Positions 60,759 to 64,000 of a stretch of DNA of 64,000 nt are shown one piece after another. A program made the translations under genes and the position numbers. The notes under the pieces are model-generated. The model saw only the letters and a program-made list of their open reading frames with translations, did not search any database and was not told the DNA's origin. The stretch is from IMG/VR virus record IMGVR_UViG_2529292913_000008, one strand, 5' to 3'. Every line of letters begins with the position of its first letter. Position 1 is the first letter of the stretch. The stretch comes from a virus. Lineage: Duplodnaviria; Heunggongvirae; Uroviricota; Caudoviricetes.

Positions 60759-63083
60759 ATGAATGACGTTACAGTTGTTACATCGGTTACTTACCCATCA
60801 CCCGAGTCGTTGGCTCTGGTGGCTGATGTGCAATACCACGAACCATATCTGTCAGCCGCGCTAAACCGAAAATTCAGGGGAATTGTTGACCCTGGATTTT
60901 ATGCTGGTTTCCTGCCGAAGCCTGGCGGTGGGATGAACCTGTTAATCACCTCAGTGGATGGTGATAAAACCGCTGGCGCGGCGTCAGTGAATATTGGTGA
61001 ATTCTACCAGGTAACTATTCAGCAGCGTAAGGATATTTCTCTTGCACTTAGCGCAGGTAAGAAATATGCAATTGTGCTGAAGGGAAGATACCTCCTTGGA
61101 GAAGATTCTTATCAGGTTAATACCGCGTCACATATTCATGCGGCTGAATTTGTTGCCAGAACCTATACCGATTCATATCAGTTAGGAGATGGGGAACTGC
61201 TTGTTTGTACGGTGAATATCCCTGCTGGCGTATCTGCTATTACTCAGGAAATGATAGATGTATCCGACCGCATCGATCTCACGATAGGCATTGAAATTTC
61301 CGACTCTGTAACCAGTACCAGAAGTGATGTCGCTGCAAGTTCGCTGGCGGTTAAAAAAGCCTACGATCTGGCGAAAAGCAAGTATACGGCGCAGGATGCA
61401 AGCACAACACAAAAGGGATTAGTTCAGCTCAGTAGCGCAACTAACAGCGACAGCGAAACAATGGCGGCTACCCCTAAAGCCGTTAAGTCTGTAAAAGAGC
61501 TGGCTGATACCAAAGCGCCAATAGAAAGCCCAGAGCTTACAGGAACGCCAACCGCGCCTACGGCAGCGCAAAGTACAAACAGCACGCAGATCGCAAACAC
61601 AGCCTTTGTTAAGGCAGCTATAACAGCACTTATCAATGGTGCTCCTGGAGCACTGGATACGTTGAAAGAAATTGCGGCTGCGATCAATAACGACCCGAAT
61701 TTCAGCACAACTATCAACAATGCCCTGGCTCTCAAAGCGCCTTTGGCAAGCCCTGCATTAACGGGTATCCCTACTGCACCTACCGCTGCACAGGGCACAA
61801 ACAATACGCAGATCGCTACGACTGCTTACGTACGGGCTGCTATATCTGCATTGGTCGGCTCATCACCAGAAGCTCTTGATACCCTGAATGAGCTTGCAGC
61901 AGCACTTGGCAATGACCCGAACTTTGCGACAACAATGACAAATGCGCTGGCAGGGAAACAGCCACTTGATGCAACTTTAACAGCGCTCGCTGGCCTTACG
62001 ACTGGCGCAAATAAATTGCCGTACTTTACCGGTACAGACACTGTTTCCCAGACTGATTTAACGTCAGTCGGTCGCGATATCCTGGCTAAAACAAGCACAC
62101 TGGCTGTTATCCAATACCTTGGTTTAAGAGAAATCGGTACCAGCGGTGAAAAGATCCCCCTGTTGAGCACGGCTAACACATGGAGTGCACGCCAGACTTT
62201 CAACGGTGGGATCACCGGGGCGCTGACAGGGAACGCCGACACCGCGACGAAATTGAAAACAGCACGCACGATTGGCGGTGTGGCATTTGATGGTACTGCG
62301 AATATTAATTTACCTGGTGTTAACGTTGCGGGGAATCAGAATACATCCGGTAACGCGGCTACAGCGACCAAGTTACAAACCGCGAGAACTATAAATGGGG
62401 TGTCGTTTGACGGTTCTAAAAACATTGAGCTAACTCCAAGGTCTATAGGCACGATCAACTCAACAACCATGTCTTTTATTGGTGGTGCAGGATGGTTCAA
62501 GCTGGCAACTGTAACCATGCCACAGGCAAGTTCCGTAGTTTACATAAGCCTGATTGGTAGTTCTGGATATAATGTTAACTCCCCTATGCAGGCTGGTATA
62601 TCTGAACTTGTTCTTCGTGCGGGAAATGGGAATCCAAAAGGTCTTACTGGTGCGTTATGGCGACGGACATCGGTTGGATTTACTAATTTTGCATGGGTGA
62701 ATACATCCGGTGATACCTATGATGTTTATGTTGAAATAGGTAATTACGCCACGGGTGTAAATATCCAGTGGGATTATACCAGTAACGCCAGCGTAACGAT
62801 TCATACATCACCAAATTACACAGTAGATAAACCAACTGGTCTTACTGATGGAACGGTATATGTTATTTACAGTTCGCACATTAAACCGACCGCCACGGAT
62901 GTCGGCGCATTACCAATAACCGGAGGAAATCTCAACGGCGGTTTAACGGCTACTGGTGAGATCGTTTCAAGATATGCAAATGGTTTCCGCATTGCCTATG
63001 GAAGCTACGGATTCTTTATCCGAAACGATGGCTCAAAGACATATTTCATGTTGACCAATTCGGGTAACAGCCTGGGAACCTAT
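60759..63083 (+). pseudogene. tail fibre gene truncated at its 3' end by IS2
   Basis: ATG 60759 with AAGGA upstream; repeated blocks SPELTGTPTAPTAAQ...DTL.E.AAA..NDPNF; frame runs 29 codons into IS2 and stops at 63170. Confidence 0.75.
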
Positions 63084-64000
63084 TGGATTTGCCCCTATAT
63101 TTCCAGACACCTGTTATCACTTAACCCATTACTGGCTTGCTGCCGTAGATATTCCCGTGGCGAGCGATAACCCAGTGCACTATGCGGATGCCATTCGTTA
63201 TAATGCTCGAATGCCTCTGCAAGGTTCTTTGCTGCCGTTAACCCGTCTGGTTTGGGCATGACACTGATGTAGTCACGCTTTATCGTTTTCACGAAGCTCT
63301 CTGCTATGCCGTTACTCTCCGGACTCCGCACCGCCGTGTTCTTCGGTTCAAGCCCCAACATCCGGGCAAACTGCCGTGTTTCATTAGCCCGGTAGCATGA
63401 ACCATTATCCGTCAGCCACTCTACTGGAGACGCCGGAAGCTCGTTGCCGAAACGGCGTTCCACCGCTCCCAGCATGACGTCCTGTACTGTTTCACTGTTG
63501 AAGCCGCCCGTAGTGACCGCCCAGTGCAGTGCCTCACGGTCACAGCAGTCCAGCGCGAACGTGACTCGCAGTTTTTCTCCGTTATCACAGCGGAACTCGA
63601 ACCCGTCAGAGCACCATCGCTGATTACTTTCTTTCACAGCCACTCTGCCGGTATGTGCCCGTTTCGATGGCGGTACAGCGGGTTTTCGCTCAAGCAACAG
63701 CGCATTCTGGCGCATGATCCGGTAAATACGTTTGGCATTGATCGCAGGCATACCATCAAGTTCGGCCTGTCTGCGAAGCAGCGCCCATACCCGACGATAA
63801 CCATATGTGGGCAGCTCTCCGATAACATGGTGTATACGGAGAAGCACATCCGTATCATCTGAGTGACGGCTGCGGCGACCATCTTTCCAGTCATCGGTTC
63901 GTCTGAGAATGACGTGCAACTGCGCACGCGACACCCGGAGACAACGGCTGACTAAGCTTACTCCCCATCCCCGGGCAATAAGGGCGCGTGCGCTATCCAC
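63084..64000 (-). mobile_element. IS2 (IS3 family), partial: right inverted repeat and orfB; continues beyond the window
   Basis: TGGATTTGCCCCTATATTTCCAGACACCTGTTATCACTTAACC at 63084 matches the IS2 right inverted repeat as recalled. Confidence 0.9.
63095..64000 (-). CDS. insD: IS2 transposase OrfB (InsD)
   Basis: 301 aa [24 protein letters not shown]..., apparent GTG start at the window edge. Confidence 0.9.

Follow-up and report, generated by a model that had tools for sequence, protein, structure and literature searches.

The question raised by the right end of this stretch of viral DNA is whether its tail-fibre gene has genuinely been broken by a mobile element and, if so, by what event and with what consequence for the phage. 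The stretch, referred to below as the window, comprises 64,000 nucleotides (nt) from the IMG/VR record IMGVR_UViG_2529292913_000008 (Caudoviricetes). It corresponds to positions 4700-68699 of contig AIGC01000010.1, from the draft assembly of Escherichia coli DEC7C, with 0 mismatches over 13,242 compared bases, the offset being confirmed from a gene near the start of the window. A plasmid prophage related to phage P1 is carried there, and the gene in question is S, which encodes its tail fibre. Analysis of the junction indicates that S in this prophage, found in DEC7-group (pig-type) E. coli, has very probably been split by an ordinary insertion of the insertion sequence (IS) IS2.

The identity of the broken gene was established from both its sequence and its surroundings. 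The open reading frame (ORF) that begins at the ATG at position 60759 encodes a homologue of the P1 S protein, with 94.6% protein identity to P1 S residues 1-518 when aligned from residue 1, and it matches the Pfam families Phage_fiber_2 and Gp34_trimer. Its N-terminal constant part is homologous to P1 Sc and lies in the gene order bplA (477 amino acids (aa)), 16 (278-279 aa), R (144 aa) and S, as in P1. The fibre-derived sequence ends at 63083, and from 63084 onwards the sequence TGGATTTGCCCC... is the right inverted repeat (IRR) end of IS2, read as its reverse complement. The frame of S stays open for 28 further codons supplied by IS2, up to a stop codon ending at 63170, so that 775 fibre residues and 28 residues from IS2 make up a hybrid product of 803 aa. 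A preliminary description of this DNA had placed the encounter of the fibre ORF with the IS2 right inverted repeat at 63084 and its termination 29 codons inside the element; both the coordinates and the assignment to IRR are correct, the 29 codons being counted with the stop. It should be noted that the cut leaves the Gp34_trimer domain 8 residues short. S is thereby divided, its N-terminal, baseplate-proximal part being separated from the distal part.

The inserted sequence is a standard IS2. Within 63084-64000 it shares 98.5% identity with copies annotated with InsC and InsD, 95.9% with a feature labelled 'insertion sequence:IS2', and 99.9% with the element of plasmid pSvP1 that was named IS2 in the published description (PMC6906374). 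The full element, seen in AIGC01000010.1 and AIGE01000007.1, measures 1331 nt and is bounded by the imperfect terminal inverted repeats TGGATTTGCCCC... and TAGACTGGCCCC.... Its two products are those expected of IS2, namely a 121-aa protein with the HTH_Tnp_1 domain (InsC) and a 301-aa protein with HTH_21, rve and rve_3 (InsD), and RefSeq annotates a 'programmed frameshift' on an identical copy.

What was removed from S can be read from an uninterrupted allele. In pSvP1_F (NZ_MN510446.1) the fibre is 1394 aa long, and the 2325 fibre nt present in the window match its gene with 100% identity. Relative to this allele, 619 codons (776-1394) have been severed, including further repeats and a glycine-rich C-terminal domain (Gly_rich_2, residues 1203-1391), and a fibre-assembly chaperone gene of the Caudo_TAP family follows the intact allele. 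The window contains neither codons 776-1394 nor the Caudo_TAP gene, and hence neither a complete C-terminal part nor a U-type chaperone. The earlier suggestion that the C-terminus of the fibre is missing or displaced thus holds, since the window retains codons 1-775 of 1394 and the remainder lies beyond IS2 in a sister assembly.

That sister assembly bears on the nature of the event. In AIGE01000007.1, after the complete 1331-bp IS2 come a second CCTAT and then the remaining 619 fibre codons. Over the 6.8 kb after IS2 there are 0 mismatches to pSvP1_F, the difference consisting of three homopolymer indels in the chaperone gene. A single CCTAT is present in the intact allele and two copies surround IS2 in AIGE01000007.1, which identifies a simple transposition with a duplication of 5 bp. 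The other end of the element, its duplication and the remaining fibre sequence, which the preliminary description had proposed to seek beyond the window, are therefore all found in this contig. As a separate observation, the three indels are single-base changes located at 15518-15927 of the DEC7E sequence used in the comparison, and may be either sequencing errors or real frameshifts.

An intact fibre gene with a junction created by the assembler was considered at this point. IS2 is a multicopy element, present at 3 places in the median E. coli genome, and the far IS2 flank of AIGC01000010.1 is itself suspect, both of which could favour such an artefact. Set against these, an exact-sequence look-up recovered the identical 803-aa hybrid on 5 contigs, four of which are placed in the drafts AIGA, AIGC, AIGD and AIGE, one in each. 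The AIGA and AIGD contigs end within IS2. The complementary 3' junction was also recovered, in the form of a 630-aa ORF on 13 contigs that opens with an in-frame TTG start inside the left inverted repeat (IRL) end of IS2; the source names for this 3' fragment include E. coli DEC7A and DEC7E. Furthermore, an IS10 element distinguishes DEC7C, which has it, from DEC7D, which does not, and this indicates that the assemblies are independent data sets. Because the same junction and the same 803-aa product occur in four separately sequenced DEC7-group drafts, and a proper 5-bp duplication surrounds IS2 in AIGE01000007.1, an assembly artefact at the fibre-IS2 junction is scarcely credible. The junction is real and inherited within the DEC7 group.

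Outside this group the junction was not encountered: no record carries it among 50,697 phage records, the plasmids of PLSDB and 5,426 complete E. coli genomes, and no published description of an IS2 insertion in this S gene was found in the literature. A different observation concerns the same region of the fibre. An ORF of 631 aa that starts at an internal methionine 11 codons upstream of the IS2 site (from approximately 63051 onwards) is recorded on 92 contigs, implying that in many other assemblies the upstream part of the fibre must be disrupted or replaced by some other cause.

With the junction established, the following sequence of events is proposed. A 1331-bp IS2 would have transposed into S of a P1-like plasmid prophage close to pSvP1, duplicating CCTAT, with the insertion lying after codon 775 of 1394 and within the domain resembling that of gp34 trimerisation. 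The late promoter LPs would thereby be left driving only R and the 803-aa hybrid. The distal 619 codons would be uncoupled from the baseplate-proximal part, and with them the glycine-rich C-terminal domain, which presumably carries receptor specificity. The chaperone gene would also lie beyond the element, and transcription from LPs would probably be blocked by 1.3 kb of antisense IS, a polar effect. Any particles formed should then be fibre-defective and unable to adsorb, and the element would be expected to persist vertically as a plasmid because replication genes, partition genes and phd-doc are present in the element of the window.

Whether particles would in fact lack a working fibre depends on the availability of a substitute, as the preliminary description had recognised in making blocked adsorption conditional on the lack of an alternative fibre. 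According to the P1 record (NC_005856), the fibre protein S is variable in its C-terminal part, which is exchanged by inversion of the C segment, a switch that confers a flexible host range (PMC6906374). A tblastn search of the window with the intact fibre, the chaperone and P1 S, U, U' and Cin returned the 5' fragment of S only, so no second fibre, U-type chaperone or cin is present there. No match to cin occurs in the window, and close relatives, including AIGE01000007.1, match only residues 1-74 of 186; a partial invertase ORF is also carried by pSvP1 (PMC6906374). One cixR site lies inside S, and no second cix site was found within 4 mismatches in the window or in the compared relatives, AIGE01000007.1 among them. 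The components of an invertible host-range switch are thus reduced to one cixR, with no homologue of Sv', U or U' and no intact cin. The single cix site, the stump of cin and the lack of a second fibre together indicate that the lineage has one, non-switchable fibre. With neither a functional Cin switch nor a second fibre set, particles should be fibre-defective.

A fibre that still functions in two pieces was considered as well, in which the 775-residue stub and the separately made 630-aa product would associate in the manner of T4 half-fibres. Such an arrangement could draw on the position of the cut, so near the end of Gp34_trimer, on the in-frame TTG in the IRL end that opens the 3' ORF, and on the freedom of both halves from mismatches to the intact allele. 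Zero mismatches are, however, equally explained by a recent insertion; the 3' ORF is without promoter or ribosome-binding support, the trimerisation domain is incomplete and bears 28 foreign residues, and no connector protein is present. A working split fibre is consequently regarded as highly improbable, and disruption of S by an ordinary IS2 insertion is retained as the explanation.

Several points nevertheless weigh against this account. Other lesions are present in the element, such as the IS186B-type and IS10 insertions, so that the break in the fibre may be neither the only defect nor the limiting one. The loss of adsorption is something we infer from sequence, for particles that may or may not be made, and mounting of a shortened fibre on the baseplate would still be possible in principle. 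Moreover, the flanks of IS2 in AIGC01000010.1 itself do not match, with CCTAT on one side and ATATC followed by chromosomal DNA on the other. Since a matching duplication is lacking in this contig, the picture of a simple insertion in DEC7C rests on the sister strains.

The last of these points deserves closer description. Past window position 64000, at 12326-22412 of the contig sequence used here, AIGC01000010.1 continues from IS2 into ATATC and then into the chromosomal genes ynfB-speG-ynfC-ynfD-ynfEFGH, not into CCTAT and the fibre. Fibre sequence follows IS2 in AIGE01000007.1, whereas in AIGC01000010.1 IS2 runs into chromosomal DNA. In the complete chromosomes of the pig enterotoxigenic E. 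coli (ETEC) strains CV839-06 and ETEC1731, the arrangement ydfD'-IS2-ynfB occurs with exactly the junction of AIGC01000010.1. The chromosomal IS2 (read in CV839-06), the IS2 of the sister strain and that of AIGC01000010.1 are identical at all 1331 positions, and a comparison of single-nucleotide differences aimed at a chimeric IS2 found none among the plasmid, chromosomal and window copies and hence no discriminating site. With identical copies, the join from the 5' part of S through IS2 to ynfB may be either a misassembly or a true IS2×IS2 cointegration.

Of these two, misassembly is rated the likelier. The far join is probably a repeat-driven assembly chimera, with DEC7C carrying the same simple insertion as its sisters together with a separate chromosomal IS2. 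This is favoured by the identity of the IS2 copies, by the draft nature of the assembly and the termination of sister contigs inside IS2, by the clean CCTAT duplication in a sister strain, and by the independent occurrence of the chromosomal IS2 at ynfB in related complete genomes; nothing stands directly against it. The alternative is that IS2 served as a recombination joint, the disrupted plasmid having integrated in DEC7C through the identical chromosomal IS2 at ynfB, so that the 3' part of S would lie approximately 90 kb away behind ydfD'-IS2. The contig does read in this way, with unmatched 5-bp flanks and a chromosomal junction that is exact in CV839-06 and ETEC1731, and IS2 does not invariably stop the assembler, a sister assembly having traversed it in a manner consistent with simple insertion. 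Furthermore, a P1-like element that is very closely related and shares this fibre allele, the 1394-aa fibre being intact, lies at approximately 415-505 kb of the complete chromosome record of E. coli NCCP 15734 (NZ_CP097001.1). It is bounded by TnAs1/IS26, which cut ddrA on the downstream (ddrA) side, the side looked at. This element provides a precedent for integration of the lineage, and integrated P1-like elements, possibly inserted via transposable elements, have been reported (PMC10879196). Plasmid and chromosomal IS2 copies that are 100% identical over 1331 nt can, on the other hand, be joined arbitrarily by a draft assembler, and two sister contigs simply stop in IS2. Integration in DEC7C is considered rather unlikely. 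The associated notion, that the fibre-breaking IS2 also acted as portable homology that turned a plasmid prophage into a chromosomal one in DEC7C only, is held to be slightly more doubtful still. If true, the join would catch the transition from plasmid to integrated element within a single clonal group. AIGC01000010.1 should not be taken as proof of chromosomal integration.

The character of the repeats in the fibre was also reconsidered. They had been described as collagen-like blocks, a description that is refuted here. The longest Gly-X-Y run in the S of the window is 2 triplets, glycine accounts for 9% of residues, and no extended Gly-X-Y tract is present. The blocks are instead the known P1 b1/b2 repeats, two units of 74 aa that match Phage_fiber_2, and shorter repeats of the gp34/gp37 type occur further along. 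At the DNA level, Tandem Repeats Finder reported nothing in the fibre gene and direct repeats are trivial.

The positions of these features, and of others in the window, are collected in Table 1.

Table 1. Features of S, IS2 and the remainder of the element, with positions numbered along the window and the grounds for each assignment.
Feature	Position	Strand	Basis or remark
Tail-fibre gene S, 5' part	60759..63083	+	Codons 1-775 of the 1394-codon allele; 2325 nt, 100% identity with pSvP1_F
IS2-encoded tail of the hybrid ORF	63084..63170	+	28 residues, then stop; from translation
IS2, 917 of 1331 nt, IRR end at 63084; transposase genes antisense to S	63084..64000	-	Nucleotide identity to annotated IS2
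insD (IS2 orfB, 301 aa)	63095..64000	-	ORF; Pfam HTH_21, rve, rve_3
CCTAT, left copy of the IS2 target-site duplication	63079..63083	+	Single CCTAT in intact allele; CCTAT-IS2-CCTAT in AIGE01000007.1
Gp34_trimer-like domain, cut by IS2	62874..63083	+	Residues 706-775 here, 706-783 in intact allele (Pfam PF21446)
Two 74-aa repeated blocks, residues 253-400 (P1 b1/b2 elements)	61515..61958	+	69% identity between blocks; P1 annotation 'repeated element b1/b2'
Orphan cixR recombination site inside S	62110..62129	+	Exact match to the P1 cixR 20-mer
Gene R homologue, 144 aa, tail-fibre structural or assembly protein preceding S	60313..60747	+	Size and position as P1 R; precomputed Pfam PF26881 Phage_P1_tail_fiber_R
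Late promoter LPs, P1-type, upstream of R-S	60264..60282	+	18/19 bases as annotated P1 LPs; position relative to R as in P1
IS186B-type element	44893-46263		Same site and 10-bp duplication (GGATCTCTCC) as pSvP1_F
IS10-type element	3202-4543		Interrupts a 194-aa P1 backbone gene; in DEC7C, not DEC7D
13-kb stretch absent from pSvP1_F	21533-34521		Includes tRNA-Met, tRNA-Thr and tRNA-Asn at 25964-28398

Among the remaining features, the insertion site of the IS186B-type element has been tied to the loss of rlfA, rlfB and pmgF (PMC6906374). The interior of this element is inverted relative to its flanks in comparison with pSvP1_F, which may reflect either an independent insertion at a hot spot or an inversion between perfect terminal repeats. 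The IS10 of pSvP1_F occupies a different site from that of the window, and the 13-kb stretch is the P1 region reported as deleted in pSvP1 (PMC6906374). At the opposite contig end, the DEC7C and DEC7D assemblies terminate at the same place, 4.7 kb upstream of window position 1 and precisely 8 nt short of loxP; an IS2 at this other end of AIGC01000010.1 was considered and rejected, the contig ending before loxP as described. A Logan contig (ERR5386485) diverges inside the loxP spacer into genes resembling the fimbrial genes fimF/G/H, which suggests an assembly branch point or Cre-mediated recombination there.

Taken together, the IS2 insertion would be one concrete step, and a recent one, by which a P1-like phage-plasmid decays, the organelle of host recognition being lost and plasmid functions retained. 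Surveys of phage-plasmids should not score this element as transmissible by infection. Disruption of prophage genes by IS elements and the decay of P1-like phage-plasmids to plain plasmids are both well described (PMC6906374, PMC10879196). The insertion is in this sense unremarkable, a standard IS2 in a gene of the P1 gpS family and a fresh instance of a known process.

Comparison with P1 (NC_005856) shows agreement in the order bplA-16-R-S, in LPs, in the 94.6% identity over S 1-518, in the b1/b2 repeats and in the location of cixR at the same place. Past approximately residue 518, the allele differs from that of P1 in being a longer mosaic (1394 aa vs 987 aa) with gp34-type repeats and a glycine-rich C-terminal domain. 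In contrast to P1, the lineage of the window is without an invertible C segment, Sv', U' or an intact cin, and its S is broken by IS2.

The closest relative is the P1-like virulence phage-plasmid pSvP1/pSvP1_F of porcine ETEC O157 (PMC6906374), whose backbone is 99.9-100% identical, with the same fibre allele, a truncated cin and an IS186B-type insertion at the same site with the same duplication. Unlike pSvP1, the element is without the ISEc84 inversion in the part covered by the window. Each of the two carries one IS2. In pSvP1 it lies in sit, a tail or injection gene, with the duplication ATTGG and with S intact, whereas the window has an intact sit and an IS2 in S; the empty ATTGG site, the target of the IS2 that interrupts sit in pSvP1_F, lies at 56306-56310 of the window. 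A six-base identity next to IS2 in pSvP1_F and the window was considered as a signal of rearrangement and rejected, the common ATNGGT being a coincidence beside two different duplications, ATTGG and CCTAT. The occurrence of IS2 in sit in one element and in S in the other indicates repeated IS2 hits on virion genes in this lineage, and agrees with the idea that elements of this kind end up locked in as plasmids carrying virulence or resistance genes.

As in defective or integrated P1-like phage-plasmids (PMC10879196), phage function would be lost and plasmid maintenance kept, with integration through mobile elements possible; unlike those decayed elements, a single recent IS hit is seen here and both halves of the gene are without decay. 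An element 95.6-98.5% identical to this IS2 is annotated in PhiR11_1, in the int region of SfX and in Stx2 prophages. Those insertions resemble the present one in the 5-bp duplication and in the expected block to transcription through the element; the present one differs in having struck a structural host-range gene, and one carried by a plasmid prophage.

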